The translations under genes and the position numbers were made by a program. From assembly GCA_903901055.1 (NCBI GenBank), contig CAIUPO010000008.1:4799-68798 (forward strand): 64,000 nt of DNA, given 5' to 3'. This stretch comes from an uncultured Bacteroidota bacterium. GTDB lineage: Bacteria; Bacteroidota; Bacteroidia; JABEUT01. Positions 12,736 to 61,778 of the stretch are shown here, in pieces (the first letter of the stretch is position 1; each line of letters opens with the position of its first letter). The notes below the pieces were generated by a model that saw only the letters and a program-made list of their open reading frames with translations, had not been told where the DNA came from and searched no databases.

Positions 12736-12935
12736 TGCTCTTGACGTTTTGTTATTTTTCATTCCAGAACATATTTCATCCCGTCCCTAAGCATTTTTAT
12801 CTGGCATTCAAAAGGGAAATAAACAACCTCAAAATCAAGGGGTACAAAAATCTATTCTAAAAAACAATTTTATTGTCGGCTTTTGAGTTAAATAATAATA
12901 TATTTGTCTGTTCAAATTATTGTAAGAAGACTTCT

Positions 12936-15299: not shown

Positions 15300-15312
15300 A
15301 AAATAACCCACC

Positions 15313-18300
15313 ATGAAGATAAAATACTTACCACTCATTATTACAGCCTTGTTTTTTGCTGTAAAAGCTAATTGCCAGCATCAGCTCTATTTTGAGAATT
15401 TTGAAGGCTCAACTCCAACATTTAATATGAATGACAATACCTATGGTAAAAACATGGGTAATAATAAGTGGATAATTAATAATGTGTATACAGGAGCAAT
15501 TGGTCACCCAAGCACAAAAAGTGAGGATAGCACTTATGGGGGAAGTATTTCGTATGCACCTTTTGGGCATTATATGCATATTTATGACAGTGCATCAGCT
15601 TTTAAAAATGATAATTACAATCCGGGGGATTCTTCTTACCGCTTTGCTTATATGAATGTAGGTATTTGTACAAAAGCCCTTACAAATATTAATTTCAACT
15701 TTTTCTACTTGTGCCAGGGTTCAAATACTGCATTCGGAAGAGTAGTTTATAGTATTGACGGAGGCCCTTGGACACCAACAAGCTGGACGCTGAACGGAGA
15801 TACCGTTAACAACCGATATAAATGGCAATACGCTACCATTACCAATGCCGCTTTTTCGAATGTTGAAGACGTAAGATTCGGATTCCTATGGAAGAATAAC
15901 AAAGCTGCCGGAACTGATACTACTGCTTTTGGAATAGATGATGTTTCAATATATGGAACCTATGATAGCATTAATCACCCGATAAATTGCAAGTTTAGTA
16001 CCGTATTTTCCGATAGTTGTCTGGGGGGGAATGCCTATATTTATGTAAGTGCAGCATTCAGCGACAGCACTTGCGATGCAAGTTGGGACTTTGACGTATC
16101 AAACAAGAGTGGAGGTTTTTCTCCACCAATTGTGGCATATACTTATTATATAGGCCCTTCTTATGGAAATGACTTAAATGCATATTTATTTGCTTCCATT
16201 CCGACTGCTTATGTAATCCCGGGGCAATGTTATAAGGTTAGGGTTAACCGTTTATCATACCCTTATTTATCATTTACCGATTCAGTTTGTTTTCCCCTGG
16301 ATACCTGCCCGGGTACAATTCAAACATTACAACCACCTGCGACTTTAGATACCAATGCAGTTTGCGCTGGTAGTGTTATAGATGTTCCCTTCTTTTCGAA
16401 TGGTATTTACAGTATTTACAACATCTATTATTGCCAGTTAATTGATTCCATTGGAAATACTGCTGTGATTGATACGATAGGCCAATTAGCCAGCAATGTT
16501 GCATATCCTTATCCTCCGGGAGATGTTGTGAGCACGATTCCTTTTAAAGTTCCGGCCGGATGTCATTACTATGTGCGCGTTGTTTGTAACACAGGTAACC
16601 GCCCTTCTACCATGTGGGGGCCATTCTGTATACAACATTGCGATATTGTAACTGACTCTAATACCAGCCAGGATTTACATGCTTGCCTTGCATCTTGTTC
16701 AAAACAGCCAAATGGGTGGACTGATTCTATAATTTATGACATACATAAATATGATTCACTGGCATATTATAATCCGGGAAATAAATTTAAAGTTCAGTTA
16801 ATTCAATTTGTTAATTATCCACCTAGTTTCGCAGTAATAAACACTGGCTTACTTGGTGTTAAAGTTGACACCACCAGTGGTAAGATGTATATTCATGTTC
16901 CATGTCCAACTACTTTGTTCGCAAATGGAATTAACCCCGGTGTATACTATATAAGGGTTGTTGCAGATAGTTCAAACTTTACCGATAGTGCATTTGGTAC
17001 TTTGGTACATCTAACAATAGGTGAACCTGCAGATAACTTAACGCTCACATTAGGTACAGCGGGACCATATTGTACAGGAACAACAATTACAGTTTATACA
17101 AATCCTGATCAGGAATATTCTCCCTATTACTCAACCTATCAATGGTGGGTAACCGACAGGAAGGGTACATATCCGTTTAATAACTACCCTTATGGAACAC
17201 TTAACTTTTACAATACAACAGGAGACACACTGATTGTAACTTGCCAGGAAACTAATAATGGCTGTAAAGGAAATGTTGCTAAACTGGCTGATACTATCGT
17301 AATTTTAGGATTACCGAGTGTATATCCAAAAGGACCTCAATATTTGTGTGTTGGGGATACAGGCTTGTACTACGTTCCGTTCGCCAATAACACAAGTTAT
17401 ATCTGGACATTGCCAGCCAAGGTACATGCTGATACAGCCAACAATGAATTAAAAATCAGGTTTGATTCTGTCGGAACATTTAAGTTTACTGTGTTGGCCA
17501 CCAATGCATGTTATTCCAATACCTATACTTGGACGGTACATGTAATAGCCCAGCCAACACCTGCAATAACAGCGGTGCCAAGTGGTGCTTTCTGTGCCGG
17601 AACATCCGTAGTATTATCCGTTACAGGAGCAACAACCTATAAATGGAGTACCGGGTCCACAAAAACAACAATTAATGTAGCACCAACCAAGGACAGTTCA
17701 TTTTGGGTTGGGGCATCTAATAAGGGTTGTACAATAAAGGATACCATCAAGTTAGTAGTTTATCCGTCACCTTTAGTTGCCGCAACACCTTCTGTTACCA
17801 CAATATGTATTGGTGATACTGCCAAGCTTACAGCAACAGGTGGAAAAACATACAACTGGATGCCTGATGGTGGTTTGAACAGCAATACGGATTCTGTTAT
17901 CCATACGATTGTAACTACAACGGAAACGTATACAGTAATGGGGTATTCCGTTCATGGTTGTAAAGATAGTGCAACTGTTATGGTGTCTCCTTTACCTGTT
18001 TCAGGAACATTAATAAGCACCAATACTTCCATTAATGAAGGAACAAGTGTTACCCTTTCGGCAACAGGTGGCGGAACCTATTTGTGGATTCCTTCTACCG
18101 GGTTGAGTTGCGATAATTGCCCTGATCCGGTTGCATCACCTTCAGTAACCACAACATATACCCTTGTTATTACCGATTCCAACAAGTGTTCTGTAAGAGA
18201 GAGCCTTACAATTGATGTAATAGAAGCATGCGGAATCATATTTGTACCTGAAGCTTTCTCTCCAAATGCGGATGGTCATAACGACAGGTTGTATGTTAGA

Positions 18301-18504
18301 GCGAACTGCGTTTCATCATGTGACTTTATTGTGTACGACCGTTGGGGTAATAAAGTGTGGGAAACTACCGACATTAACCTCGGATGGAATGGCACTTACA
18401 AAGGCCAACCTATGAATACCGGAACCTACGTTTACTATGCCAAAATAGTGAATAATTTAGGCAAAACAATAACTGCAAAAGGAAACGTTGCACTGGTAAG
18501 ATAA
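15313..18504 (+). CDS. Giant secreted adhesin-like protein with an N-terminal beta-sandwich (MAM/galactose-binding-like), Ig-like repeats and a T9SS type B C-terminal domain
   Basis: It has a signal peptide and repeated YxWSTGxT.../TGLSCDNCPDPVASPSVTTTYTL modules. The C-terminus FSPNADGHNDRLYV...IVYDRWGNKVWETTDINLGWNG...GTYVYY is a type B sorting domain. Confidence 0.8.
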   Translation: MKIKYLPLIITALFFAVKANCQHQLYFENFEGSTPTFNMNDNTYGKNMGNNKWIINNVYTGAIGHPSTKSEDSTYGGSISYAPFGHYMHIYDSASAFKNDNYNPGDSSYRFAYMNVGICTKALTNINFNFFYLCQGSNTAFGRVVYSIDGGPWTPTSWTLNGDTVNNRYKWQYATITNAAFSNVEDVRFGFLWKNNKAAGTDTTAFGIDDVSIYGTYDSINHPINCKFSTVFSDSCLGGNAYIYVSAAFSDSTCDASWDFDVSNKSGGFSPPIVAYTYYIGPSYGNDLNAYLFASIPTAYVIPGQCYKVRVNRLSYPYLSFTDSVCFPLDTCPGTIQTLQPPATLDTNAVCAGSVIDVPFFSNGIYSIYNIYYCQLIDSIGNTAVIDTIGQLASNVAYPYPPGDVVSTIPFKVPAGCHYYVRVVCNTGNRPSTMWGPFCIQHCDIVTDSNTSQDLHACLASCSKQPNGWTDSIIYDIHKYDSLAYYNPGNKFKVQLIQFVNYPPSFAVINTGLLGVKVDTTSGKMYIHVPCPTTLFANGINPGVYYIRVVADSSNFTDSAFGTLVHLTIGEPADNLTLTLGTAGPYCTGTTITVYTNPDQEYSPYYSTYQWWVTDRKGTYPFNNYPYGTLNFYNTTGDTLIVTCQETNNGCKGNVAKLADTIVILGLPSVYPKGPQYLCVGDTGLYYVPFANNTSYIWTLPAKVHADTANNELKIRFDSVGTFKFTVLATNACYSNTYTWTVHVIAQPTPAITAVPSGAFCAGTSVVLSVTGATTYKWSTGSTKTTINVAPTKDSSFWVGASNKGCTIKDTIKLVVYPSPLVAATPSVTTICIGDTAKLTATGGKTYNWMPDGGLNSNTDSVIHTIVTTTETYTVMGYSVHGCKDSATVMVSPLPVSGTLISTNTSINEGTSVTLSATGGGTYLWIPSTGLSCDNCPDPVASPSVTTTYTLVITDSNKCSVRESLTIDVIEACGIIFVPEAFSPNADGHNDRLYVRANCVSSCDFIVYDRWGNKVWETTDINLGWNGTYKGQPMNTGTYVYYAKIVNNLGKTITAKGNVALVR

Positions 18505-19586: not shown

Positions 19587-21473
19587 ATGAAACCAAGCCT
19601 TATTCTATCGATTTTAAGTGTGTGTACCCCAATAGTCCTATTGGGACAAAGCTTAAAACCGGAAGCCAATTCTTCAACTTATATTCATTGCACAAAATTC
19701 TACGAAACAAAACCTTTGCGTGAATTGTCGAAGCTTTATCCTGCCAAAACGAACACACAAAATGCTGAATCTTCCGACAGGAACAGAAAAAATGCACGAC
19801 CAAAATTCAGTACATTTCATCCTACTAATGATTACTCCGATCCTGTTCGTCAAACAACTCCGGGATCCGTTCTTGGTTCGATAGCCCCTATTGTTAATTT
19901 TCAAGGAATGACATCTACTTCCGATCCGGGAGACCCAAACGGTGCTGTTGGTGACAGTGATTATGTTGAAGTTATTAATGTGAATTATGCAATTTATTCT
20001 AAAACGGGTGCAACCATTCTGCCTTCCTCCAACTTAGGTGGTTTATGGCCCGGTAATCCTCAGGATGGCGACCCTGTAGCATTGTTTGATAAGTTTGCTG
20101 ACAGATGGTTCATATCGGAATTCCAGATTACCAATACACCTTACCAATTTGATGTGGCAGTTTCTAAAACGAGTGATCCTACAGGGGCGTATTACGTTTG
20201 GGAATTCAGCATGGGAAATACAGACCCCGATTATCCTAAATATTCTATCTGGAGTGATGGCTATTATATAACCTTTCAGGGGTTCGGTGGATTTAATCCT
20301 AACGTGCCCCAACAAATAGCGGTGCTTGAAAGAAACCGAATGCTAAAAGGTGATCCTAATGCCGGAATGGTAATTGGTAATCTACCATCCAATCCTAACT
20401 TTACTGGCGGAAACAACAGTTTATTTGCATCGCCAAAAGCGTTGGATTGTGATGCCAGTGCGCTCCCACCATTCGGAACTCCTGAATACATTGTTTATTT
20501 TGAAAATATTGCTTCTGGAGGATTTGATGACAAAATAGTGATGGATAAAGTTGCATTTGATACAACTGCAAAAACATTAACAATTACCCGTGCTGATTCC
20601 TTTGCTGTGGCAACTTTTAATGCCTACTTCAGCGGTGGAAACATGACTGATATTTCCCAACCGGGCCTCTTGCATAATGTTGATGCACTCGATGGAACAT
20701 TTAATTACCGTACACCTTATTCTGTTTTTACCGGTTATAATTCAGTTGTGCTTAGTAATACCGTAAATTTAGGTAGTTTGGTTGCAGGTATCAGATGGTA
20801 TGAACTGAGACAGGATAATACGACCAAAGTGTGGACTTTGCATCAGACAGGAACATACGGGCCAAATGATGGTGTTAGCCGCTGGAATGGCGCTATCTGC
20901 CAGGATTATAATGGAGATATAGCTCTTGCCTATTGCGTAGCAGACAGTGTTAACCTGTATCCCGGTATCCGCTACACAGGCAGGCTTTCTTCAGATCCTG
21001 TAGGCCAAATGACATTTGCCGAACAAACCGCAATTGCAGGAACATCTACATTATCCGGTACGTTCGGGCGTTGGGGTGATTATTCCCAACTTGACATTGA
21101 CCCTGCTGACGGCTATACATTCTGGTGTACCAACCAATATGGTGGTGGTTCTAGTTCGAGTCAAGACAACAGGATTTTCTCATTTAAGCTTGCCGGAAGT
21201 TTAGGAATTAATGAAGTGCAAAATAAAACTGAACTGAAAGTTTATCAGTCGGGTAATTTCCTGAATGTAAAAGCTTCAGGCTTACCGGGCAATGATGAGT
21301 TGCTTGTTGATTTATTCGATATGTCAGGCAGGCAATTATCTACTCAAGCTGTGAAGCCTTCATCGAATATGCTTGAGACCCAAATCAACGTTAGCGCAAT
21401 TGCGAAGGGAGTTTACTTTGTAAGGATAGGAAAAGCAAACTTCCAAAGGGTTGTAAAAACTACTGTTAATTAG
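19587..21473 (+). CDS. Secreted hypothetical protein with a T9SS type A (Por_Secre_tail) C-terminal sorting domain
   Basis: It has a signal peptide. The C-terminal roughly 80 aa (KVYQSGNFLNVKASGL...GVYFVRIGKANFQRVVKTTVN) fit the type A CTD. The N-terminal roughly 520 aa are unassigned. Confidence 0.65.
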   Translation: MKPSLILSILSVCTPIVLLGQSLKPEANSSTYIHCTKFYETKPLRELSKLYPAKTNTQNAESSDRNRKNARPKFSTFHPTNDYSDPVRQTTPGSVLGSIAPIVNFQGMTSTSDPGDPNGAVGDSDYVEVINVNYAIYSKTGATILPSSNLGGLWPGNPQDGDPVALFDKFADRWFISEFQITNTPYQFDVAVSKTSDPTGAYYVWEFSMGNTDPDYPKYSIWSDGYYITFQGFGGFNPNVPQQIAVLERNRMLKGDPNAGMVIGNLPSNPNFTGGNNSLFASPKALDCDASALPPFGTPEYIVYFENIASGGFDDKIVMDKVAFDTTAKTLTITRADSFAVATFNAYFSGGNMTDISQPGLLHNVDALDGTFNYRTPYSVFTGYNSVVLSNTVNLGSLVAGIRWYELRQDNTTKVWTLHQTGTYGPNDGVSRWNGAICQDYNGDIALAYCVADSVNLYPGIRYTGRLSSDPVGQMTFAEQTAIAGTSTLSGTFGRWGDYSQLDIDPADGYTFWCTNQYGGGSSSSQDNRIFSFKLAGSLGINEVQNKTELKVYQSGNFLNVKASGLPGNDELLVDLFDMSGRQLSTQAVKPSSNMLETQINVSAIAKGVYFVRIGKANFQRVVKTTVN

Positions 21474-24925: not shown

Positions 24926-25178
24926 ACTTTTACTTATAGCATATAGCTGATGGCTAATGGCTGTTTGGGCGGCAAAGATAGAAAGTTAACTAGAAACTAT
25001 GTAGGATGAGTTCTTCAGATATGCTATTTCTTTTGTTAGTTGCATTCTTGAGGCGAATAAGCAAGGAAAATTGATTGCAATAACTTCAATATTCAACTGT
25101 TAATAAAATGTACTTTAAGAATAGTGGGTTGCTTATTTATTGCATTAATTTTGTACAAAACACCGGAAACCAAAAAAG

Positions 25179-27890
25179 ATGAATAGAATCGTTACTATTT
25201 TAATCGGGATTATACTTTTTTCTGCATCTTCAGTTAAAGTAAAGGCCCAGTCCGGTTGCAGTTGCTGGCAACAAAGAGACACCAGTTTTCATTACGTGCC
25301 CTTTGCATGGGATAGTGATGGCAGTTATATTCCGAATCCTCCTTATTACCGTTGTGACGATGGAGCTACATTAGCCATACATCTGCCGTTTAATTTTTGT
25401 TTTTGGGGCACTGCGATGGATTCAGTTTTCATAAATACAAATGGCAATATCTCTTTTTACCAGCACATTTATGCATTTAGTCCAGATACGTTTCCTGTTT
25501 CGGATTACCGCATGATAGCCCCTTTTTGGGGAGATGTTGATTTACGGAGGTCTCCTTCAGCTGGAACTGATGTGGTTTTATATAAAATTACTTCACATTA
25601 CATGATAGTGCAATGGGATAGCGTTCGCTTTTTTGATGCTACTGTAGAGCCTTTTGGAAAATACAATTCTTTTCAATTAATAATAAGCGACGGCACTGAT
25701 CCAATTTTACCGAAGGGGAACAATGTAGAGTTTTGTTATCATACCATGCAATGGACAACAGGAGATGCTTCAGGCGGAAGTAAGGGGTTTGGTGGAGACC
25801 CTGCTACAGTTGGAGCTAACTATGGAGACGGCACTAAATTTATTCAAATGGGTTTGTTTGATACTGCTGGTAATAAGTACTTGGGCCAGTTTCCACCGGG
25901 ACCTTCGTATGATGGCGTAAGCTGGCTTAATAACAGGTCATTCCTGTTTAATCTCTGCTCCGGTTCAATTGCTCCGTTAACTTCCGGAATTTCGCCCTGC
26001 GATACCTTTAAAATTTGTGTAGGTGATTCAATGTTGATTCCACTTTACTTCTTTTCACCGGTTCAAAATGACTCGGTCTGGTCTAATTTATCGCCTCCTG
26101 TTCCACCCGGGGTAAGTGTCTATTCAAGCAAACCCGGACATACCGATAGTTTGACTATTAAAGTAGTTGGTAATTCATTCAATTTAGGATACCATACCAT
26201 CAATGTTTATGCGTATGATAATGAACACCCTCCTGATACCACATATACCTCATTTGTAATTGAAATTGATTCGTTGCCTAAAGTGAAAGTTAAGGCTGTA
26301 ATGGATACCATTTGTGCAGGGGATACTTCAGTACTTACTGCTTCTGGTTCGCAACTATATTTATGGAGTACAGGGGCCACAACTTCAATAATAAAAGTTA
26401 GCCCTCCATCCACCCAAACTTACACTGTAGGAGCATCGAATGGAGGATGCAATCATGATACTACAATTCAGGTTGTAGTATTGCCTAATCCGGCTCCAAC
26501 TATTATTGCAAAACCAGATACCATTTGCCCTAAGGATAGTGTATTACTAATTGCAGGAGGTGGCGGAACTTACAAATGGAGTACAGGACAGACGAAAGAT
26601 AGTATTTGGGTGAATCCTTTAACAACAAAGGTTTATTACCTGACTGCGACAAATGGAAAATGTTCTGACTCAGCGAAAATTTCAATTTTCGTCACAACTC
26701 CGGGCGCGTCAACTATTGCGTTGAATAAAGACAGTATTTGTCCTTATGACACAGTAATATTAACAGCAAGCGGCGGGGTAAAATATAAATGGAGTAATGG
26801 CGCAACAACAAGTTCAATAACTGTTACTCCGGGAAGTACCACAACTTACACCGTTTATTCGAATGTTACCTGTGCCATTGATACATTAAAGCAAAAGGTG
26901 ATCGTAATACCTCTTCCCGTGGCAACAATTACCGGGCGAACTGCCGTATGTAAAGGTCAGGGGGATACCATAACTGTTTCAGGCGGAATATCTTACCAAT
27001 GGAGTAACGGGAGTACAAAAAGCCAATATATTTTAAAAAATATTGGTGCTGATTCCACCATAAGTGTAAGGTTATTTAATGGCAAGTGTTATGTGGATAC
27101 AACCATAAAAATTACGATTGCCTCTCCGCCGATTATTAGTGTTATTGCGCCCGCAGTTGCTTGTTCAGGAACAATGGTTGTAATTAAGTCAAGTGTTTCG
27201 GGCAGCGGCCCTTTTAAGTATTTATGGAAACCGGGCAATCAAACAACAGATAGTATAGTTGTTGATGATACATCAAAAGTAACATACACGCTTGAAGTTT
27301 CAAATGGTTGTATTTCTACAACTAAAACCACCATAACACCGGATAACCCGCCTCTTAAAGCATGTTGCGACAAGGTAATTATATTAGGAGATGATACAGT
27401 CATAACAGCAAGCGGTAGTACGATTATTAAATATCAATGGATAGACTCCAATTTGGTAATATGCCAAAACCCACCGCTTTGCAGTGAAGTAAAAGTAACA
27501 CCTACTGTTACTACAACGTATACTGTTATTGGAACGGATACCTTAGGTTGTCAAAAAGAAATGGTAATAACTATAATAGTTGAGGTGCCCTGTTTCAATA
27601 TTACCGTGCCCAATGTAATTACACCAAACTTTGGCGCAGGCCATGTTGGGGTTAATGGAGGAACAAACAATGTGTTCTATATCCAAACCCAAAATATGGA
27701 TGGATGGTCAGTTCTAATTTATGACCGTTGGGGCAAGGAAATGTTCAAAACAACCAACCCGAATACTTACTGGAATTGCACTACGGAAGGCGGTGCCGAA
27801 GCACCCGATGGTGTTTATTATTACATCATTACAGGGTCATGCCAGGGGAAAACTTACAACCAACACGGATTTGTTCAAGTAATCAGATAA
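25179..27890 (+). CDS. Secreted protein with an N-terminal NIDO (nidogen-like) domain, Ig-like repeats and a T9SS type B C-terminal domain
   Basis: It has a signal peptide. The NIDO pattern (...LPFNFCFWGTAMDSVFINTNGNISF...IAPFWGDVDLR...VVLYK) is present, followed by repeated YKWSTGxT modules. The C-terminus is LIYDRWGKEMFKTTN...GVYYYI. Confidence 0.75.
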   Translation: MNRIVTILIGIILFSASSVKVKAQSGCSCWQQRDTSFHYVPFAWDSDGSYIPNPPYYRCDDGATLAIHLPFNFCFWGTAMDSVFINTNGNISFYQHIYAFSPDTFPVSDYRMIAPFWGDVDLRRSPSAGTDVVLYKITSHYMIVQWDSVRFFDATVEPFGKYNSFQLIISDGTDPILPKGNNVEFCYHTMQWTTGDASGGSKGFGGDPATVGANYGDGTKFIQMGLFDTAGNKYLGQFPPGPSYDGVSWLNNRSFLFNLCSGSIAPLTSGISPCDTFKICVGDSMLIPLYFFSPVQNDSVWSNLSPPVPPGVSVYSSKPGHTDSLTIKVVGNSFNLGYHTINVYAYDNEHPPDTTYTSFVIEIDSLPKVKVKAVMDTICAGDTSVLTASGSQLYLWSTGATTSIIKVSPPSTQTYTVGASNGGCNHDTTIQVVVLPNPAPTIIAKPDTICPKDSVLLIAGGGGTYKWSTGQTKDSIWVNPLTTKVYYLTATNGKCSDSAKISIFVTTPGASTIALNKDSICPYDTVILTASGGVKYKWSNGATTSSITVTPGSTTTYTVYSNVTCAIDTLKQKVIVIPLPVATITGRTAVCKGQGDTITVSGGISYQWSNGSTKSQYILKNIGADSTISVRLFNGKCYVDTTIKITIASPPIISVIAPAVACSGTMVVIKSSVSGSGPFKYLWKPGNQTTDSIVVDDTSKVTYTLEVSNGCISTTKTTITPDNPPLKACCDKVIILGDDTVITASGSTIIKYQWIDSNLVICQNPPLCSEVKVTPTVTTTYTVIGTDTLGCQKEMVITIIVEVPCFNITVPNVITPNFGAGHVGVNGGTNNVFYIQTQNMDGWSVLIYDRWGKEMFKTTNPNTYWNCTTEGGAEAPDGVYYYIITGSCQGKTYNQHGFVQVIR

Positions 27891-27994
27891 TATTTCTACC
27901 ATTCCGTCGTTAGTAATTATGTGCATTAATTAATTGATAGGTGCTATAATTAATTAAATTTGTACGTTATTCATAACATACCTTTTCTTTACCG

Positions 27995-30900
27995 ATGAAA
28001 AAAATTACAAGGCTTTCATTATTTCTTCTCAGTTTATTGCCTTTTCGGGGCTTTTCACAGTTGCCCAATATGGGTACAAACCCTAAGGGTGGCGGAAGCT
28101 GGATAGCTACTAAACCATTTCAACGGGATGTTTTTATTGAAAACAATGGCCAATTTTCTGCGGCAGAGAAAAAATTTGTCGGCAGTAAAATAAACTATTT
28201 TACCCATAAGGGAAGTGTGTATTTATACTTTACTCCAAACGGATTAGCGCTTCGTAAAGATACTGTCTATAAAGTGAAAGGGGAAGATAAGATAGGCATT
28301 GAACAGGAAGACGGGATGCGTGATTTGAGGATAAAACACATGCTCACTAAAATGCAGTTTGTAGGCGCAAACCCGAATGCAAAAATTGTAGTCGAAAATG
28401 AAACCCCTGATTACTTTACTTATCCTAATCATCAGGATAAGAGTGGAAAGTCAAGTGTATTAGCCCATGCATGGACTAAGCTTATCTACAAAAATATTTA
28501 TAAAGGAATCGATATTGAATTCTATTATCCTGAAGATAAAGGAGGGATTGAATACAATATCATTGTTCATCCGGGTGGAGATCCATCCGTTGTTAAGTTT
28601 TCATATTCCGGTTCAAACTGTTCCTTAAATGGAAATAACCTTGAAGTTGCTACAGGATGGGATAAAATTATTGACCATGCTCCAACGGCAAAGGATGCAA
28701 ATGGGCATACCGTTAGTGCTGCATTTGGCGTGAATGGAAACACTGTTTCTTTCCATGTTGGAAATTATGACAAATCCCAAACATTGGTAATTGATCCCTG
28801 GATGACCCTGACTACGTTGGGTGGCTCAAACCTTGGGTACGACATTGGTTATGATTACCTCGGAAACGTTTATGTTTATGGTGGCGGGGTTAGCGGCTAT
28901 TATGAATTACAGAAATATAACAGTGGCGGCGGATTGGTTTGGACATACACCAATAATGCCTTCACCTACTTGTATGTTACCGGTTATTTCTACGGTGGAA
29001 TGGTAACAGACCATAAAACAGGAACATCCTATATGTGTGAAGGATTTGATCCGTCACCTGGTTGTATGGTTGTAAAGGTTAATTACAACGGTACTCAGGC
29101 TGCATTATTTAACGGTAACAGTGGTACCGATGAAATGTGGCACATGGAATATGATTATTGTAACGATCAGTTATTGATTGTTACCGGTGGTTCACCTACT
29201 GGCCAACAATGTTGCCACATGGATACAAACTGCACCACCGAATCGCAGGTGAATATGTTATCGCTGGTTGGAGTATATTCTGACCAAACCCTTATTGGTA
29301 CAGATAATGCCGGACAATGTTATGTGGCTACATCGCAGATGGTGTTCCCTTCAGGCTATAGTAACTTGCTTTGCAAAATGCCTTTACCATCTATGACACC
29401 TACGGCGTATAATGTTTACGATAAACACAACTTTATTGAAATAACGAATATTAGCTACTATCCCGTTTTAAGTGGGTATGTAGTCGGTAATGGGTTTAAC
29501 GGACTTGTAGCAACCCCAACATTTGTGGTTACGTATGATGGTGGAAAAATGAGGCAGTGGAAGGCATCCAATGGTGCGCTTTTTGATTCAGCCACTGTTA
29601 GTGGTACATCGTATGCCTGGGGCGGACTGGATATAGATTGTCAGGGACATATTTATTGCGGGAACAACAATGCTATTAGTATTTACGATTCGAATATGAA
29701 CCCTGTTGGGAATATCCCGTTAAGCAACACGGTGTATGACCTTTTGGTGGCACCTAACGGCAATATTTATGCATGTGGAAATGGCTATGTTCAATGCGTT
29801 TCAGGTGCACCCAAACTAGTTACTGCAACTTACACTCCTGCAGGTTGTGCCTGCACTGGTTCAGCTACAGCGCATCCATGCGGTCCCGGCCCTTTCAGCT
29901 ATTTATGGAGTAATGGTGCAACCACCTCATCAATTACGAATATGTGTAGCGGAACCTATACTGTTACAGTATGGGAAGGCACATGCCCAAAACCTTTTGA
30001 TACTGCTATTGTAAATTTAGGCGCTGGAGGCGGTTTTGCTGCAACAGTGACAACCGTCAATGCAAGTTGCTCTTTGAATGGTTCTGCAACCGCAGTTCCA
30101 ACTGGAGGACACCCACCATACACCTACAAATGGAGCGATAATACTACCAATGTAAAAGATACCGGGTTAATTGCTGGCAATTATTATGTTTTAATATGGG
30201 ATAGTACTGGTTGTAAAGATTCAATTGCATTTACTATAACAAGTTCCGGAGCTCCAACAATTAAGGTTACACCTACAAATGACTCAATTTGTAATGGTGG
30301 AAGTGATTCACTGGTGGCTAGCGGTGGTCAAACCTATTCCTGGTTGCCAACTACAGGGCTTTCCTGCACCACATGCGCTAATCCAATTGCCTCACCCACA
30401 ATAACCACGATTTATACCGTTACCGGTGATTCAAATGGTTGTAAGGCGACGGCAACTGCCACTGTAACTGTATTGCCTCCTCCAACAATAAAAGTGTCTG
30501 CTTCTCCGGATACTGTTTGTAGTGGAAATCCAACAACAGTAACAGCTTCAGGAGGTGTTACCTACAAATGGAGTGATGGTTCTACAACAAGTTCAATAAC
30601 GGTTAAACCAATCGTAATGACAACCTATACTGTTATCGGGTTTGATGCCCATGGATGTTCAAACGCGGCTACTGTTACAATTTATGTTGCTTCGGCACCT
30701 AATCTGACCGTATCGGTAAATAAGAGTATATGCCCTGGCCAAAGTGTAACATTATCGGCATCGGGTGTAGGTTCAGGATATAACTGGCAACCCGGAAACA
30801 ATACAAGCCAAACCATTACGGTGTCTCCAACATCAACAACAACCTACACAGTTACGTTAAGCGATGGATGCGGAATTGCAACGGGAAATGTTACAGTAAA

Positions 30901-31708
30901 CGTAAACCCTATGCCGAATACCAAAATCACCGCAGATGTTATGGCAGGTTGTGCTCCTTTATGTATTCAATTCAGAAATACAACAACTATATCTTCAGGA
31001 ACTATTACCCAGTATAACTGGGCTTTTGGAAACGGGGATACTTTGAATGAAAAGAATCCCGTTTATTGTTATCCGAATCCGGGAAGTTATAATATCACTA
31101 TGACTGCTGTTTCCGATAGCGGTTGCAGTGCTACCTTGAAGGTGCTTAACATGATAAATGTTTACAGTCATCCGAATGCGAACTTTACAGTAAACCCGCA
31201 GCCAACAACTATTATGCAGCCAACTATTGAATTTGGAGATAAGTCAACTGATGCCTACGGAATAACCTACTGGAACTGGACGTTTGGCGATGCATTGGAT
31301 TCCGTTCAATATACCCAGAATGCAAGCCACACTTATGGGGATACAGGTACATATTGTGCTACATTGACAATTGTAAACCAACACGGCTGCGCTGATACAA
31401 TGACCAATTGCCTGATAATTTCACCTATTTATTGCTTATATATACCAGATGCATTTTCTCCCAATGGGGATGGTAAAAATGAATTTTTTACCGCGAAAGG
31501 AAATGATGTTATTTCATTTGAAATGTACATTTTCGACCGATGGGGAATGCAGTTATTCCATAGTACGGACATAAATGATGGCTGGAATGGTAGGGTAAGA
31601 GGCGGCAGTGTAATTTGCCAGGAAGATACTTATGTGTATTTAATTAATGTTTACGACAGTAAGAAAGCTAAGCATTCGTACACAGGAACTGTTAATCTTT
31701 TAAAATAA
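27995..31708 (+). CDS. Giant secreted adhesin with SprB repeats, PKD domains, Ig-like modules and a T9SS type B C-terminal domain
   Basis: It has a signal peptide. SprB-repeat signatures (e.g. GGHPPYTYKWSDNTT...GNYYVLIWDSTGCKDS) and PKD motifs (YNWAFGNGDT...PGSYNITMTAVSDSGC) are present. The C-terminus is FSPNGDGKNEFF...YIFDRWGMQLFHSTDINDGWNG. Confidence 0.85.
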   Translation: MKKITRLSLFLLSLLPFRGFSQLPNMGTNPKGGGSWIATKPFQRDVFIENNGQFSAAEKKFVGSKINYFTHKGSVYLYFTPNGLALRKDTVYKVKGEDKIGIEQEDGMRDLRIKHMLTKMQFVGANPNAKIVVENETPDYFTYPNHQDKSGKSSVLAHAWTKLIYKNIYKGIDIEFYYPEDKGGIEYNIIVHPGGDPSVVKFSYSGSNCSLNGNNLEVATGWDKIIDHAPTAKDANGHTVSAAFGVNGNTVSFHVGNYDKSQTLVIDPWMTLTTLGGSNLGYDIGYDYLGNVYVYGGGVSGYYELQKYNSGGGLVWTYTNNAFTYLYVTGYFYGGMVTDHKTGTSYMCEGFDPSPGCMVVKVNYNGTQAALFNGNSGTDEMWHMEYDYCNDQLLIVTGGSPTGQQCCHMDTNCTTESQVNMLSLVGVYSDQTLIGTDNAGQCYVATSQMVFPSGYSNLLCKMPLPSMTPTAYNVYDKHNFIEITNISYYPVLSGYVVGNGFNGLVATPTFVVTYDGGKMRQWKASNGALFDSATVSGTSYAWGGLDIDCQGHIYCGNNNAISIYDSNMNPVGNIPLSNTVYDLLVAPNGNIYACGNGYVQCVSGAPKLVTATYTPAGCACTGSATAHPCGPGPFSYLWSNGATTSSITNMCSGTYTVTVWEGTCPKPFDTAIVNLGAGGGFAATVTTVNASCSLNGSATAVPTGGHPPYTYKWSDNTTNVKDTGLIAGNYYVLIWDSTGCKDSIAFTITSSGAPTIKVTPTNDSICNGGSDSLVASGGQTYSWLPTTGLSCTTCANPIASPTITTIYTVTGDSNGCKATATATVTVLPPPTIKVSASPDTVCSGNPTTVTASGGVTYKWSDGSTTSSITVKPIVMTTYTVIGFDAHGCSNAATVTIYVASAPNLTVSVNKSICPGQSVTLSASGVGSGYNWQPGNNTSQTITVSPTSTTTYTVTLSDGCGIATGNVTVNVNPMPNTKITADVMAGCAPLCIQFRNTTTISSGTITQYNWAFGNGDTLNEKNPVYCYPNPGSYNITMTAVSDSGCSATLKVLNMINVYSHPNANFTVNPQPTTIMQPTIEFGDKSTDAYGITYWNWTFGDALDSVQYTQNASHTYGDTGTYCATLTIVNQHGCADTMTNCLIISPIYCLYIPDAFSPNGDGKNEFFTAKGNDVISFEMYIFDRWGMQLFHSTDINDGWNGRVRGGSVICQEDTYVYLINVYDSKKAKHSYTGTVNLLK

Positions 31709-31830
31709 ATTTCTATCGGAAGGCATCTGATGATAGGGTGGTAAGGGTGGAGGAAGTAACCAAAATGGAGCAAAATGCGTTTAAAGTATTACAAAATAGT
31801 GTAACTTTGTTCCGGAAATACAATAGGCTA

Positions 31831-33900
31831 ATGAATAAAAAGATTATAATATCTTTTTTATCGCTTTTAAATTTACTAGCATTTACTTTTAATGTCCGGG
31901 CTGAAAAGCATAGCAAAACTTGTTCCAATAATCCTTTATATTCTGCTACAATAGTCCCTGTTGCAAACTTCACTGCAAACAGAACTATAGTTTGTGTAGG
32001 AGATACTATTGCATTCACGGATTTATCTGCTAATGGCCCTACCGCCTGGAAGTGGACATTTAACGGTGGAACACCACCAACCTCAATCACGCAAAACGAA
32101 AAGGTTGTTTACAACATTGCTGGTACATATACTGTAAAACTGGTTGTTAGCAATATTGCAGGCTCTGATAGTATGACGAAGGTTAATTACATTGTTGTAA
32201 ATCCGTTACCTAATGTTAAAGTGAATCCTTCGGCTCCATTTATTTGCAAAGGAGATAGTGTTATGCTAACGGCATCCGGCGCGGCAACTTATACCTGGCA
32301 TCCAACGACAGGATTAAGTTGTACAACTTGCCCAAATCCTTATTCAAAAGTAAATGCAAACATAACTTATACCGTTGTTGGGAAAAATGCCTCGGGGTGT
32401 ATCGATTCTACCAGTGTAACCGTAACTGTAGGGAGTATTGTTGTTTCCATAAGTGCATCAGATACTAATATTTGCCAGGGTAATTCAGATACACTGACCG
32501 CAATGGGTGCCAATTCATATTTGTGGAGTAATGGTGCCACAACAAGTCAAATAATAGTTTCACCATCCTCTTCAACTACATATACTGTAATTGGTACAAG
32601 CCTTACTTGTATTGATACTGCTACTTTTAAAGTGAATGTATTTCCTGCACCTAATATTGTAATTTTAGGTACGGATAGTGTTTGTATTGGTGGCTCAACA
32701 ATACTTACTGCTACAGGTGCTGTGAATTATTTCTGGGCACCTTCTTCAGGACTTAGCTGTACATCGTGCCCAAGCCCCATGGTTAGCCCTACAATCACAA
32801 CTACTTATACAGTTATAGGAACCGATAATAACGGATGCAGCAATGCTACTACAGTTACTGTTTATGTCGAACAATTGCCTACGGTTGTTGCCCACACCGG
32901 CTTACCTGCAATATGCTCCGGTTCAGGAATGGCAACAAGTTTATCTGCCAATGGCAACCCGTCAGGTGGAACTTATGTATGGCAGCCTTGTAATAAGACT
33001 GGGCAAGCAGTAATCGATACACCAACTGTCACTACTGTCTACACGGTTTACTATACCAACTCCTGCGGAACAGCAACAGATACGGTAAGGGTGAATGTGT
33101 ACCCTCAGCCCAAGGTTGTGTTTTTTGCAAGTTCGAAATCCGGGTGTGCCCAATTTTGTGTTCAATTTACAGGGATAAACCTTACACCCGGAGTTAAAAT
33201 ACTTACATGGACCTGGGACTTTGGAGATGGCGGCACTTCTAATTTACAAAGCCCTCCTTATTGTTATAAAACTCCCGGAACATATACCGTTACTTTATCA
33301 GCTTATACAGCTAACTGTAGTACGCAGACGCAAATTGCAGATTATATCACTGTTCATGCATTGCCAAAGGCTGATTTCTCATATTCTCCCGACCCTGCAA
33401 CTATACTCGATCCTGTAGTAGCATTTGAGGATAAAACTACCGGGACTGCTCCAATTACAAGTTGGGCCTGGAATTTTGGTGATACAAACTATTTTTCAAA
33501 CTATAACCGTTATCCTACCCATACTTATCTTGATACCGGGTACTATTGTGTTCAACTTGCTGTTAGCGATAAGAATGGATGTGTTGATACCAATAAACAA
33601 TGTTTTGATATTAATTCCCAATATAGCTTTTATGTTCCCAGTTCATTCTCTCCAAACGGTGATAACATAAATGATATTTTTATACCAAAGGGAACGTATA
33701 TAAGCAATTTCGAAATGTACATTTATGACCGTTGGGGTATGCAATTATACCACACTACGGATATAACGGATGGATGGAATGGCAAAGTAAAAAACACCGG
33801 TAAAATTTGCCAGGAAGATGTGTATGTTTACGTGATAAGCGTAAATGATAAGAAAGGGTTGCCACACCATTATACAGGCTCGATTTATCTGCTGAAGTAG
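31831..33900 (+). CDS. Secreted adhesin-like protein with PKD and Ig-like domains and a T9SS type B C-terminal domain
   Basis: The start was set at MNKKIIISFLSLLNLLAFTFNVRA (signal peptide). The ORF opens earlier, at 31738, and overlaps the upstream gene. TGLSCTTCPNP/TGLSCTSCPSP modules and PKD motifs are present. The C-terminus is FSPNGDNINDIFIPKG...YIYDRWGMQLYHTTDITDGWNG. Confidence 0.8.
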   Translation: MNKKIIISFLSLLNLLAFTFNVRAEKHSKTCSNNPLYSATIVPVANFTANRTIVCVGDTIAFTDLSANGPTAWKWTFNGGTPPTSITQNEKVVYNIAGTYTVKLVVSNIAGSDSMTKVNYIVVNPLPNVKVNPSAPFICKGDSVMLTASGAATYTWHPTTGLSCTTCPNPYSKVNANITYTVVGKNASGCIDSTSVTVTVGSIVVSISASDTNICQGNSDTLTAMGANSYLWSNGATTSQIIVSPSSSTTYTVIGTSLTCIDTATFKVNVFPAPNIVILGTDSVCIGGSTILTATGAVNYFWAPSSGLSCTSCPSPMVSPTITTTYTVIGTDNNGCSNATTVTVYVEQLPTVVAHTGLPAICSGSGMATSLSANGNPSGGTYVWQPCNKTGQAVIDTPTVTTVYTVYYTNSCGTATDTVRVNVYPQPKVVFFASSKSGCAQFCVQFTGINLTPGVKILTWTWDFGDGGTSNLQSPPYCYKTPGTYTVTLSAYTANCSTQTQIADYITVHALPKADFSYSPDPATILDPVVAFEDKTTGTAPITSWAWNFGDTNYFSNYNRYPTHTYLDTGYYCVQLAVSDKNGCVDTNKQCFDINSQYSFYVPSSFSPNGDNINDIFIPKGTYISNFEMYIYDRWGMQLYHTTDITDGWNGKVKNTGKICQEDVYVYVISVNDKKGLPHHYTGSIYLLK

Positions 33901-33902
33901 AT

Positions 33903-34490
33903 TTACTTCACGCCCATTTTTCCATAGTAAAATACAAGTATCCAGGCAATGAGGATGTATATAATGTAACTAACTGTTGGCAGGAATGGCGCCATTATGA
34001 TAGCTGCAAGATAAGAACCATTTACAAAAATATAAATGGGGAATTGCTTACGGAAGTCCTTTAATAGAAAAGGTTCTGTTAGAAGTTCGGGATGATAGCA
34101 TGTGTACCATGTCATTAGGAACGCAACAAGGTTTGCTGCCATCAGGTTTATGCCATAAATCATTAGCGGAACCGGCTCTGTAGGATATTTACCTAATAAC
34201 GAAGCAGGGAAAGGCATAAAGCTTACAAACAAAAGCAATAACATATTCAGCCATAAAAGCACCCCGTTCACTTTGTGAATATGATGAAAGGAAGTATGAT
34301 GCGCAATCCAATAGAGGCCGATTAATATAAAGCTGGTTACATAGGCAAGTATATCCGGAAATAATGCCTTCAAGGCCTCTCCCAAGTGTTGGGTGCTTGT
34401 ATTTTCGGGAAGGTGGATGTTTAGAATAAGAATGGTGATTACAATGGCAAAAACACCATCAGAGAACATTTCAAGCCTGTGTTTTGTCAT
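33903..34490 (-). CDS. DUF1211 / TMEM175-like membrane protein (putative K+ channel family)
   Basis: The N-terminus RLEMFSDGVFAIVITILIL is the DUF1211 hallmark. Six predicted TM helices follow. Confidence 0.7.
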   Translation of the reverse strand: MTKHRLEMFSDGVFAIVITILILNIHLPENTSTQHLGEALKALFPDILAYVTSFILIGLYWIAHHTSFHHIHKVNGVLLWLNMLLLLFVSFMPFPASLLGKYPTEPVPLMIYGINLMAANLVAFLMTWYTCYHPELLTEPFLLKDFRKQFPIYIFVNGSYLAAIIMAPFLPTVSYIIYILIAWILVFYYGKMGVK

Positions 34491-36106
34491 GCAACTTGTT
34501 TTTTATGAAAATAACGAATTATCTTAAATATAATCAGAAACCCTATTAACAGGATACTTAAGTAAGAAGCAAATAAACCCGGGTAATCTCCATAGCGGGC
34601 GTAAAATGTTACTACATCCGATGGTTGCATTCTGGCTTTAATTACTGCGGGTTCCCACCATTTCGTTTGTTGGGAAATAGAGCCAAATTCATTAATTATT
34701 CCTGAGAAGCCTGTGTTCGCGCATTGCACAACTTGCTTCCGAGTTTCTGCTGCCAGCATTGCTCCGTAGCATAGGTGCTGCCTGTAACCGGGGGTATCTT
34801 TCCACCAGCCGTCGTTTGTTATTACGAATATAAGCTGAGCACCTTTTTTTATGTATTCACCAATATATTCCCCATAAATGGATTCGTAACAAATAGCCGG
34901 TGCAATGGTGGTTTTGGAGTATGAGGAATAGAATACGGTAGGCTCAATTTGAGTTCCTAATGTTCCGCTTGTTCCACCAAGGTCAAAAGCCAGTTTACCC
35001 AATGGTGCTAACAGTTTGTTGAAAGGCATAAATTCCACACCAGGGACAAGCTTACTTTTGTGGTAAACCTGAATGCTTTTTGATGTGTCTAATTGGAAAG
35101 CAGTGTTAAAGGAACTATCAATTTCATCAACTTTTTCGCCACTGAAATAGGCCTTAGATGACTCAGCCCCTGTAACCAATCTAAGGTTAGGGTGTTTGTG
35201 GAGGTACCTCCAAACCATTCGGATACTTGAATCTTTCTTAAAGTTATTTTCCCATAAATTGGGGTCGGCGATGGCGGTTTCTGGGAATACCAGATAGGCT
35301 GTGTTGCTATCTACCTTTTTGTCGGCAAGGTCGAACATCTTATTTAACTGATCTTGGAAGTTGCCGTTGAACTTCTCATTGTAGGGGTCTATGTTGGGTT
35401 GGACAACTACAACACTTACCGTTATTGGTTTGCAGGGAGAAGGGTAAGTGATGAAGGTTATTAATGATATAAGAATAGGCACGATGATTATGGCAAGTGC
35501 AGGGCCGAGTATCTTAAAGGAAAGCTTGTGTGTGTTGTCAATCCAGCGCTTTTTAATGATGTTGTAGACTGCCAGATTGCACAGCAGTATCCAAAGGGTG
35601 CCACCCAATGGGCCTGTGTATTCATACCATTGAAGAAGGGATACATAATTGGAAAACCCAAAGCCCAAGGTAAGCCAAGGCCAACTTAGTTGCCAGTTAA
35701 GGTGTATGTATTCGAAGGATAGCCACAGGACAATAAGAGCGCCATATCCAAAAACATTGCCATGCTTGCGCTTTATGCTATGAAATAAGGTTAGCACTAA
35801 TGCCATGAACAGCGAGTTGCAGAGAATGGCGATAGCACCACCAACATAAGTAGAGTTACATACCCACCATGTGGTTAGCCCGTTCCAGAGGAGCATTGCA
35901 AGGTAGGCATGACCAAAAAAGGTACGCGATTTACGTTTCTTGCCTGATGGGGGAGTGGTGCCGGATAGTTGATGCTCAACAATAAGCAAAGGACAGAAAG
36001 CTACCAATAGCAACAATGGAAAGCCGTATGCGGGCCAGCCTGCCCAAAGCAATACGCCAGTTAGGCATGATAGTAAAAGTAATTGTTTGCGGGTAAGGGC
36101 TTTCAC
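34487..36106 (-). CDS. lnt: Apolipoprotein N-acyltransferase
   Basis: A polytopic N-terminal membrane domain is followed by a C-terminal CN-hydrolase domain (LVFPETA...CYESIYG...ITNDGWW). The gene overlaps the downstream DUF1211 gene by 4 nt. Confidence 0.85.
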   Translation of the reverse strand: MKALTRKQLLLLSCLTGVLLWAGWPAYGFPLLLLVAFCPLLIVEHQLSGTTPPSGKKRKSRTFFGHAYLAMLLWNGLTTWWVCNSTYVGGAIAILCNSLFMALVLTLFHSIKRKHGNVFGYGALIVLWLSFEYIHLNWQLSWPWLTLGFGFSNYVSLLQWYEYTGPLGGTLWILLCNLAVYNIIKKRWIDNTHKLSFKILGPALAIIIVPILISLITFITYPSPCKPITVSVVVVQPNIDPYNEKFNGNFQDQLNKMFDLADKKVDSNTAYLVFPETAIADPNLWENNFKKDSSIRMVWRYLHKHPNLRLVTGAESSKAYFSGEKVDEIDSSFNTAFQLDTSKSIQVYHKSKLVPGVEFMPFNKLLAPLGKLAFDLGGTSGTLGTQIEPTVFYSSYSKTTIAPAICYESIYGEYIGEYIKKGAQLIFVITNDGWWKDTPGYRQHLCYGAMLAAETRKQVVQCANTGFSGIINEFGSISQQTKWWEPAVIKARMQPSDVVTFYARYGDYPGLFASYLSILLIGFLIIFKIIRYFHKKQVA

Positions 36107-36166: not shown

Positions 36167-36619
36167 GTTGCGAGTTAATTTCTACAAAAAGTGTAGTAAA
36201 AAGGGGGATTAAAAAGTACAATTATTGACTTGAAATGGATAGGGCTTTTATGCAACGTTATGCAACACTTTTGAAAATTCACGTTTAGCTAAAGTAATAA
36301 AAAATCTTTAAGAATAAGCATATAAACAAGCACTTAACTGAAAAAGACATATTTGAAATAAATTATAAGAAGATTGTACTAATATATATTATAAAATTAA
36401 CAATATAATATATTTTTGTAGCCTAATCTTAAAAATACGGGAGAAATCCCGTATTGCGCCCCGGGAAAACTCCCGTATACGATTTTCATAAAATCCCATT
36501 GACAAACCCTTTTTCAGGTTGTAAGTTTACCACGGCTTAAAATTCCTTTTTCCCATGCTCCGCTCATTTTTTATATCGTTAATTTTTTTAATATTGTGGT
36601 AGAATTAAAACTACCAGCT

Positions 36620-57848: not shown

Positions 57849-58514
57849 TCAAGAAGCTAATGCGTTTAACCAAAGCACCAGATAAACGATAAACATAATT
57901 AAGAAAACGAAACTTAATACAGCAAAAATGCAACCAAATTCCCCTTGGGTGGTGGTGGCTGTGGCCCAGTCAGTCGTTCCAAATAATGCGCCGCAAATGA
58001 AAAATAAGCCAAGCAAAACAATCCACAGCGTTAAGTATTTCCCTTTTTTAGAATCGTCGTGCTTGTAAATATGGTCATTATGACCTGCATAAGGGTCGTT
58101 TAAGGAGTTCTCTTTTTGAGAAATAGTTGTAGTTGTAAATGTATTTGTGCTTTTTGCAATGGCTGTTGCCTGTTGTACTCCTTTTTTATCAGTGGTTTCA
58201 TTCGCCCCCGCAGTTGATGTCATTTCTTTAAAAAGGGCTTTACCCAACCTTGCTGTTCGCTTAATAAATGAAAGGGTTTCTCCCGTCTCCTTTGCCATGT
58301 TGGATTCAGTATTTACAGTAATATCAGGGCCTCCGCTAGTATAGGCTGTATTCACTTTGGGAACAGGTTCAAAAAAATGGCCCTTGGTATATTTCCTTTT
58401 TCCAAATGAAGTGACAGTATTATAGGTTGTGCAATATGAAAACAACACAACTGTTAATAATAAGCAAAGGAGTTTAAAATAAGTCCCCGGCTTAATAAAG
58501 TGGTTGGAATCCAT
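57849..58514 (-). CDS. Paralog family member (signal/lipobox, TSFGKRKYTKGHFF, low-complexity linker, C-terminal TM hairpin)
   Basis: LLCLLLTVVLFSYCTTYNTVTSFGKRKYTKGHFFEPVPKVNTAY. NDPYAGHNDHIYKHDDSKKG precedes two C-terminal TM helices ending ...ILWL. The upstream box is TTGTACTAAAA. Confidence 0.6.
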   Translation of the reverse strand: MDSNHFIKPGTYFKLLCLLLTVVLFSYCTTYNTVTSFGKRKYTKGHFFEPVPKVNTAYTSGGPDITVNTESNMAKETGETLSFIKRTARLGKALFKEMTSTAGANETTDKKGVQQATAIAKSTNTFTTTTISQKENSLNDPYAGHNDHIYKHDDSKKGKYLTLWIVLLGLFFICGALFGTTDWATATTTQGEFGCIFAVLSFVFLIMFIVYLVLWLNALAS

Positions 58515-58565
58515 TGTTTAATGAAATTTTAGTACAACGAACTAATAATGGTTTCTTACCCTTTC

Positions 58566-60107: not shown

Positions 60108-60189
60108 TCTGGGTGTTTTAATATTTTATTGGGAGGCTAAAGTACAATTTTTTTGAAATGGAATACAAATGGCAACGGTTACTGTTTTA

Positions 60190-61766: not shown

Positions 61767-61778
61767 TCAGAAGGTTTT

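Follow-up and report, generated by a model that had tools for sequence, protein, structure and literature searches.

A NIDO-headed protein with a type-B T9SS C-terminal domain, probably a surface adhesin, from an uncultured Bacteroidota bacterium

The 64-kb stretch of DNA analysed here (the window) contains a complete gene for a 903-residue protein whose N-terminal NIDO module is, as judged by profile comparison, homologous to the animal NIDO domain. Sequence and models together establish the predicted domain order: putative signal peptide, compact NIDO, putative cadherin-like domain, then six repeats of Ig/PKD-like type and the C-terminal domain (CTD) of type-B T9SS cargo. We consider it probable that this protein is a T9SS type-B adhesin on the cell surface of an uncultured Bacteroidota bacterium from freshwater or soil. 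A role in surface adhesion or matrix binding had been put forward in a sequence-only reading of the same DNA, and it was reasonably drawn from the architecture.

The gene spans positions 25179..27890 of the forward strand, on which all features given below also lie. In the ORF list it runs from ATG to stop, with 903 codons followed by the stop codon at 27888-27890. The identical 903-aa protein was found on 11 public metagenome contigs, for which the NIDO and CHU_C domains had been precomputed, and none of the ORF, NIDO, CHU_C and repeat features is a chance pattern. By-eye inspection revealed a putative Sec-type signal peptide at aa 1-23 (25179..25247; MNRIVTILIGIILFSASSVKVKAQ, followed by S), with a basic N-terminus, a hydrophobic core and the AxA-like cleavage site VKAQ; in the AF2 model this segment is of low confidence (pLDDT ~50) and contains a helix at aa 4-12. 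This signal-peptide-like N-terminus and the C-terminal T9SS export domain point to an extracellular location of NIDO. We also considered a lipoprotein reading of the CxC motif after the signal peptide and rejected it, since CxC lies tens of residues past the signal peptide in most relatives.

The NIDO domain proposed for the N-terminus was confirmed by the suggested HMM comparison. The whole protein scored 68.7 bits with PF06119 (gathering cut-off 25; E 8.6e-19), and the N-terminal 300 aa alone gave a single PF06119 match at aa 81-223 (25419..25847), corresponding to profile positions 1-156 of 186 (E 5.4e-20). The sequence-only reading had allowed for another beta-sandwich family explaining the region better; no other Pfam family matched aa 1-300 even at E<=10, and this alternative was rejected. 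The AF2 model of aa 1-320 (pLDDT 84.6, pTM 0.83) and the alignment of relatives, whose matches cover 85-100 % of the first 300 aa, delimit a NIDO-like module of aa 24-260 (25248..25958), predicted to fold as a single compact, beta-rich unit at the N-terminus of the mature protein. Most 10-residue blocks within aa 31-260 have a pLDDT >=86, with two dips to 70-75.

We compared the profile of the bacterial NIDO module (A2) with an alignment of source-named alpha-tectorin/SNED1 proteins (A6) by hhalign, which returned a probability of 99.95 % and an E-value of 5e-38 over 154 columns at 38 % identity. The core aligned in this way (aa 57-224; 25347..25850) contains the motifs NDD, LPFxFxFYG, INNNGxISF, APFWxDVDxR, NTFQ and MQWTTGDASGG..GFGGxPATVGxNxGDG. 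Those quoted in the sequence-only reading are indeed present in the window protein, as LPFNFCFWG (aa 69-77), INTNGNISF (aa 85-93) and IAPFWGDVDLR (aa 113-123); the Pfam model starts only after LPFxFxFxG, which is nevertheless part of the region aligned to animal NIDO in the profile-profile comparison. TGDASGG could be taken for a serine-protease-like motif, a reading that we rejected because the motif is common to non-enzymatic animal NIDO proteins and the AF2 model is a beta-sandwich.

Animal NIDO domains (PF06119 / SMART SM00539) occur in alpha-tectorin, SNED1, nidogen-1/2 (G1 region) and mucin-4. They have in common with the bacterial module NDD, LPFxFxFYG, NNNGxISF, FP, APFWxDVDxR, VYY, NTFQ, WTTGxASGG and GxGGxPAxxGxNxGD, and both are extracellular and mostly near the N-terminus. 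However, the bacterial module lacks the ~24-residue segment that animal NIDO proteins have past the VYY strand, has a short DPxxPxGNN insertion of its own, and bears N-terminal (CxCW..RD..F.VPF) and C-terminal (aa 225-260) extensions outside the animal-profile alignment. The partner domains also differ, being cadherin-like, Ig/PKD and T9SS CTD domains in bacteria and EGF, vWD, AMOP or G2F in animals. In nidogen, NIDO lies within the G1 region, while G2 is a GFP-like barrel; the comparison with "nidogen G2/NIDO" that had been suggested therefore conflates two domains. We detected no NIDO structure in the PDB by sequence profile or fold, and the NIDO fold weakly resembles sugar-binding supersandwich domains.

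The description of NIDO as rare in bacteria proved wrong. The module matched 4,310 representatives of 50 %-identity clusters at E<=1e-3 (555 at <=1e-30), species-representative bacterial genomes hold at least 519 NIDO-module loci, and several genomes have two or more NIDO paralogues. Among the 58 nearest representatives, 39 combine NIDO with CHU_C (type-B CTD) and 11 combine NIDO with SprB repeats, and relatives already bear the NCBI name "nidogen-like domain-containing protein". The Bacteroidota proteins so named by PGAP (about 480-510 aa) come from the same phylum and habitats as the window protein and share its NIDO and cadherin-like head at 40-60 % identity over aa 1-300. In contrast to the window protein with its six Ig-like repeats and CHU_C/type-B CTD, they lack the Ig stalk, end directly in a type-A T9SS CTD (Por_Secre_tail, PF18962) and would use the PorV shuttle. 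The window's own species is absent from the GTDB representatives for this gene, the best of which reaches 62-63 % identity. Orthologues of other species in public metagenomes combine NIDO and CHU_C in the same domain order, with downstream cargo genes that differ from those of the window: P0125 (902 aa) and an 897-aa ORF of L004 are full-length orthologues at 58 % and 55 % identity, respectively, and P0121 (746 aa) is 68 % identical over the NIDO module. The NIDO head of the window protein was thus correctly annotated but is ordinary, with thousands of such proteins in Bacteroidota that databases already label. Our literature searches on bacterial NIDO found nothing relevant.

Next to NIDO, at aa 261-366 (25959..26276), lies a putative cadherin-like/Ig-like domain. 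The family profile A1 matched protocadherin EC domains in the PDB over the equivalent of aa ~262-365 (E 2.5e-5). In almost all relatives this domain comes after NIDO, and no other part is as well conserved between orthologues (68-73 % identity). These features, together with the NIDO paralogues of several genomes, would suit a protein for cell-cell cohesion, in which the cadherin-like domain and/or NIDO binds, on adjacent cells, either further copies of this protein or a different surface component, leading to aggregation or biofilm rather than attachment to an external substrate. The cadherin-like call is weak, however, as the window copy scanned alone had no Pfam match, and we regard cohesion as distinctly unlikely.

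Six tandem Ig/PKD-like repeats occupy aa 367-804 (26277..27590), as delineated by the DNA period of 210-213 nt, alignment A4, AF2 and Foldseek. They are ~71-82 aa each (aa 367-437, 438-508, 509-579, 580-649, 650-722 and 723-804) and carry a conserved Cys pair and a G..Y.W..G motif in alignment A4. The Ig-like YKWSTGxT repeats of the sequence-only reading held up in the predicted structure but not as a Pfam family. The AF2 model of repeat 2 (pLDDT 94.1, six strands) is an Ig/PKD-type beta-sandwich, with Foldseek TM scores of 0.70-0.74 to Ig and PKD domains and a best E-value of only 6e-3; PF19081 (Ig_7) gave 20.8, 22.6, 17.3 and 14.0 bits for repeats 1-4 scanned singly, below the gathering score of 27.3, and no match for repeats 5-6 scanned in the same way. 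Ig_7 scores above threshold in 10 of the 58 nearest representatives. Between orthologues, conservation is lowest in repeats 4-6 (43-51 %). We infer that the six-repeat region is a stalk.

The CHU_C-type T9SS domain recognized from the sequence was borne out by PF13585, which matched at aa 809-901 (27603-27881, within a CTD at 27591..27887) with 56.4 bits against a gathering score of 27 (E 3.3e-15, profile positions 2-86 of 86). TIGR04131 gave 25.5 bits, under its cut-off of 35, because this CTD is a variant form: aligned with the window's four other CHU_C domains, its PNxFTPNxDGxND motif is interrupted by 8 inserted aa, and WNC stands in place of WNG. The insertion and the low score might suggest a decaying or chimeric ORF that is functionless by itself, as might the surroundings of the gene, since the interval between the UDP-glucose 6-dehydrogenase (UGDH) gene and Lnt varies in cargo-gene content among relatives. 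Yet the 903-codon frame is intact, every family-invariant residue is present, the full-length orthologues at 55-58 % identity share the domain order, and a comparable variant of the CTD motif recurs in P0121 and P0125 as well as in the L004 orthologue. This conservation already largely refutes decay, which we consider highly improbable. The position beside UGDH is syntenic in L004 and L005. Two further genes for type-B cargo follow downstream, and beyond them TMEM175 and Lnt lie on the opposite strand; the DUF7948 gene of this cargo set is missing in L004.

About ten genes of the window have T9SS CTD matches, two of them under the Pfam threshold, and a T9SS is therefore implied to exist in the organism, while no T9SS core genes were found in the 64 kb. 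A cognate porP/sprF-like gene directly downstream, an arrangement that is common and non-universal, is absent here, and none of the 41 scanned window ORFs of at least 150 aa encodes a PorP/SprF shuttle (ORF 44604-45092 and shorter ORFs lay outside the scan). This absence is compatible with the "orphan" class of type-B cargo, to which Fjoh_1123, Fjoh_1720 as well as Fjoh_4934 of Flavobacterium johnsoniae belong, likewise with no adjacent porP/sprF gene (PMC12618676). The F. johnsoniae type-B adhesins (SprB, Fjoh_3952, Fjoh_1123/1720/4934) also combine a signal peptide and an Ig-like, repetitive body with a CTD of the CHU_C/TIGR04131 type. By their descriptions they are set apart by the lack of a reported NIDO head, and the window CTD is a divergent subtype relative to theirs, under the TIGR04131 cut-off.

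Fjoh_1123, an orphan substrate like the window protein, the SprB repeats of the immediate downstream gene and the 11 of 58 relatives with NIDO and SprB repeats all favour a mobile adhesin for gliding, akin to SprB/RemA, that its CTD would load onto the gliding track and whose NIDO head would give traction on the substratum instead of static attachment. We nevertheless think this unlikely. The window protein is, at 903 aa, far shorter than SprB, no gliding genes were found in the 64-kb window, and other type-B CTDs, such as that of Fjoh_3952, hold their cargo statically (PMC12618676); the sequence does not assign this CTD to the gliding or the static class.

For the adhesin that we favour, the export steps can be modelled on the established F. 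johnsoniae type-B cargo (PMC12618676). The protein would pass the inner membrane by Sec and fold in the periplasm, where its conserved cysteines probably form disulfides. The CTD would then serve as recognition handle for the T9SS, and a PorP/SprF-type shuttle would pick up the protein at the translocon and retain it on the outer surface. There, the Ig-like repeats may form a stalk of ~20-25 nm that displays the NIDO and cadherin-like pair as a distal ligand-binding head. Because animal NIDO proteins act in a matrix context and the fold bears a weak likeness to sugar-binding supersandwich domains, our guess for the ligand is a glycan or an extracellular-matrix polymer. Alternatively, the NIDO module might be an enzyme (e.g. 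glycan-active) or a released soluble binding protein, shed into the medium following T9SS export, which appears quite improbable to us.

To our knowledge, NIDO has no agreed function in animals, be it in nidogen, alpha-tectorin, SNED1 or MUC4. Animal NIDO proteins are linked to disease, TECTA to deafness and MUC4 and SNED1 to cancer invasion (in part after bioRxiv 10.1101/2020.07.27.223107). Since the 64 kb contain about ten T9SS cargo genes and the domains of this one are publicly precomputed, the gene carries little weight for the window, and thousands of compact Bacteroidota versions of NIDO at the tips of surface proteins give it modest broader value. The structure or ligand of one bacterial NIDO would inform both freshwater/soil bacterial adhesion and animal matrix proteins. 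It is conceivable, though doubtful, that the compact bacterial NIDO and cadherin-like head is a module for ligand binding, perhaps dependent on glycans or Ca2+, that is widespread in environmental Bacteroidota and has escaped study; if so, this abundant and easily expressed head, free of the ~24-residue animal segment, could yield the first NIDO structure and ligand. With thousands of bacterial clusters, it is likewise conceivable but doubtful that animal NIDO was acquired from bacteria.

Promoter and terminator scans were uninformative, with sigma-70 sites at chance level. TAnnTTTG, the -7 promoter consensus of Bacteroidota, shows no enrichment across the window (84 occurrences versus 93 expected); a candidate -7 element that fits it, TAATTTTG at 25146..25153, 26 nt 5' of the ATG, is weak and statistically unsupported. 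The source bacterium belongs to a Bacteroidota MAG lineage related to AM_bin-3948.

The gene at 25179-27890 (+) is an uninterrupted ORF, from ATG to stop, encoding 903 residues. A Pfam scan of the product recovered NIDO (PF06119; E 8.6e-19, 68.7 bits, gathering score 25), the domain that the sequence-only reading had called from a set of motifs, all of which are found in the protein. Scanned alone, the first 300 residues matched NIDO in a single unbroken stretch from aa 81 to 223 (positions 1-156 of the 186 in the profile) and no other Pfam family even at E<=10, which leaves no other beta-sandwich family in Pfam as a better description of this region. Inspection of the sequence suggests a putative Sec signal peptide at aa 1-23. 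An AF2 model of aa 1-320 (51-sequence alignment; pLDDT 84.6, pTM 0.83) shows one compact, mostly beta domain at aa 24-260, with most 10-residue blocks of aa 31-260 at 86 or above and two drops to 70-75; the ~50 residues that precede the Pfam NIDO match are therefore assigned to the same fold. A putatively cadherin-like domain found in nearly all relatives follows at aa 261-366. By itself this segment had no Pfam match, and over it the profile of the target family matches PDB entries of protocadherin EC domains (E 2.5e-5).

The bacterial module is homologous to animal NIDO. An alignment of 12 animal proteins, named in their source entries as alpha-tectorin (Xenopus), SNED1 (turtle, kiwi and shark) and SNED1-like (sea urchin), was compared by hhalign with 27 bacterial modules, likewise aligned and then trimmed; the animal proteins had been retrieved with an alpha-tectorin-like query that no real entry matches at more than 81% identity and that was used as bait only. 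The two aligned over 154 columns (probability 99.95%, E 5e-38, 38% identity), with aa 57-224 of our protein as the animal-alignable core, and the blocks in common are NDD, LPFxFxFYG, (I/V)NNNGxISF, FP, APFWxDVDxR, VYY, W..V.YYG, NTFQ and (M/I)xWTTGxASGG..GxGGxPAxxGxNxGD. The LPFxFxFxG motif noted by the sequence-only reading lies outside the Pfam model, yet within this unit conserved in bacteria and animals. Animal proteins carry a ~24-residue segment after the VYY strand that the bacterial version lacks, and extensions at both the N- and the C-terminal side are particular to bacterial NIDO. Nidogen carries NIDO in its G1 region, and its G2 is a GFP-like barrel, so the suggested comparison with nidogen G2 would have been misdirected. 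Searches of PDB sequences with the target family (phmmer and profile) found CTDs and protocadherins only, no NIDO, and Foldseek with the NIDO model gave no match at E<=1e-3; the fold is represented by no solved structure. Bacterial NIDO heads could be tractable models for a fold without a structure or a defined function in animals.

Behind the head, aa 367-804 form six tandem units of 70-82 aa (DNA period 210-213 nt), each with one cysteine pair and a G..Y.W..G motif. Four of the six gave sub-threshold scores against PF19081 (Ig_7, "Ig-like domain CHU_C associated"; 14-22.6 bits, cut-off 27.3), and a model of repeat 2, built with the window's own repeats as alignment (pLDDT 94.1), superposes on Ig and PKD domains with TM 0.70-0.74. 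The C-terminal domain (CTD, aa 805-903) is of type B for T9SS export, matching CHU_C (PF13585) at aa 809-901 in the Pfam scan (E 3.3e-15, 56.4 bits, gathering score 27). Compared with the window's four other CHU_C domains, it has an 8-residue insertion inside the PNxFTPNxDGxND motif and WNC in place of WNG, which accounts for its NCBIfam TIGR04131 score of 25.5 bits, under the cut-off of 35. Comparable forms of the motif occur in orthologues, so we regard the variant as a subtype rather than a sign of decay; that the gene itself is decaying is essentially excluded, since orthologues exist.

The domain calls thus held, and the claim that NIDO is rare in bacteria did not. A word-indexed search with aa 1-300 returned 359 relatives, nearly all of them ~480-510-aa proteins from Bacteroidia or Flavobacteriales MAGs with NIDO and a type-A CTD, several bearing the NCBI name "nidogen-like domain-containing protein". 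Exhaustive phmmer with aa 25-260, run on 1.84 billion representatives of 50%-identity clusters, gave 4,310 at E<=1e-3, 2,376 at <=1e-10 and 555 at <=1e-30, and a one-genome-per-species scan of bacteria and archaea confirmed at least 519 loci. Of these, the best 80 almost all bear the title of a Bacteroidota MAG from freshwater, groundwater or soil; the exceptions, probably mis-binned or mislabelled, are two contigs of Candidatus Saccharibacteria, a Hydrocarboniphaga record and an entry titled "uncultured bacterium". Several genomes among the loci listed carry two NIDO copies. All 58 nearest representatives have NIDO, and with CHU_C in 39 the combination is the commonest architecture among near relatives (Por_Secre_tail, 13; PKD_4, 30; SprB repeats, 11; Ig_7, 10); the ten nearest long representatives, checked singly, all have both. 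The identical protein is present on 11 public metagenome contigs, where NIDO and CHU_C are precomputed. The protein is an ordinary representative of a large class that is database-annotated and experimentally unstudied.

Among the 150 best representatives, 146 have NIDO at the N-terminus, the head pairs with either CTD type and with variable spacers, and among orthologues it is better conserved (NIDO 61-62%, cadherin-like 68-73% identity) than the membrane-proximal repeats; identities are 48-63% in repeats 1-3, 43-51% in repeats 4-6 and 57-67% in the CTD. Together these observations support an adhesin with its head on a stalk, and the proposed role in adhesion or matrix binding is plausible from that layout. 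We infer that the protein would be exported by Sec and fold in the periplasm, after which the T9SS would recognise the CTD and pass it to a PorP/SprF shuttle; on the outer surface the six Ig-like repeats would act as spacer and the NIDO and cadherin-like pair as distal binding head. The animal NIDO context and weak supersandwich similarities lead us to guess at a polysaccharide or matrix polymer as putative ligand. As judged from sequence, the protein may instead be a mobile gliding adhesin, may mediate cell-cell cohesion or may be a released enzyme or binder.

The window holds five type-B cargo genes (12873-15299, 15313-18504, 25179-27890, 27995-31708 and 31738-33900) and about five of type A (19587-21473, 36596-37984, 38169-40667, 48786-50108 and others), two of whose CTD matches are under the Pfam threshold. 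A scan of 41 ORFs of >=150 aa turned up no PorP/SprF-like gene. In Flavobacterium johnsoniae, type-B substrates require this shuttle, usually encoded directly downstream, and three "orphan" substrates use one unlinked shuttle in common (PMC12618676), a pattern that our gene matches. The tandem type-B pair at 12873-18504 (+; 808 and 1063 aa, the first with CHU_C as its only recognised domain) is also without a following porP/sprF gene, so all five are orphans.

Our gene adjoins UDP-glucose 6-dehydrogenase (UGDH), epimerase and SpoU in a divergent arrangement that recurs at loci of two other MAG species, L005 and L004. L005 shares 98% (epimerase) and 90% (UGDH) aa identity with the window, and its NIDO gene starts with N-terminal residues identical to P0125, a 902-aa metagenome protein 58% identical to ours over the full length; the L004 orthologue has 897 aa and 55% identity. 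The cargo genes downstream differ among the three. The segment from UGDH to apolipoprotein N-acyltransferase (Lnt; 24926-36106) is a variable cargo island, with three type-B genes and one TMEM175-like gene in the window; in L004 it holds the NIDO orthologue and a CHU_C protein of 378 aa. The flanking enzymes are 62-98% identical, the NIDO proteins 55-58%. The next gene downstream, 27995-31708 (+; 1237 aa), encodes an N-terminal DUF7948 (E 4e-43) followed by SprB repeats, three Ig_7-like units with the YxWSxG pattern seen in our protein, PKD domains and CHU_C. Stalk repeats therefore appear to be common to adjacent genes with different heads.

Elsewhere, 57849-60858 (-) holds four tandem paralogous ORFs (221-235 aa, mutual identity 26-49%), none with a Pfam match, whose lipoprotein-like N-termini have a conserved SFGKRKYTKGHF motif directly after the cysteine. 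A paralogous pair at 61137-62429 (+; 209 and 216 aa, 38% identity) has signal-peptide-like N-termini and no Pfam match. At 43198-46748 (+), a 548-aa ORF with no Pfam match has a 4-nt overlap with the start of the next gene, for a TPR protein of 635 aa with a weak TMTC/O-mannosyltransferase-like segment, and the two may form one operon. The 832-aa product of 38169-40667 (+) unusually combines Peptidase_S74, the domain that serves endosialidases and phage tail fibres as an intramolecular chaperone, with a C-terminal type-A sorting domain (sub-threshold, 20.7 bits vs 27). Beside NIDO, a second "animal-named" domain on T9SS cargo occurs at 36596-37984 (+; 462 aa), where a teneurin-type NHL beta-propeller (PF25021, E 4e-40) precedes a type-A CTD.
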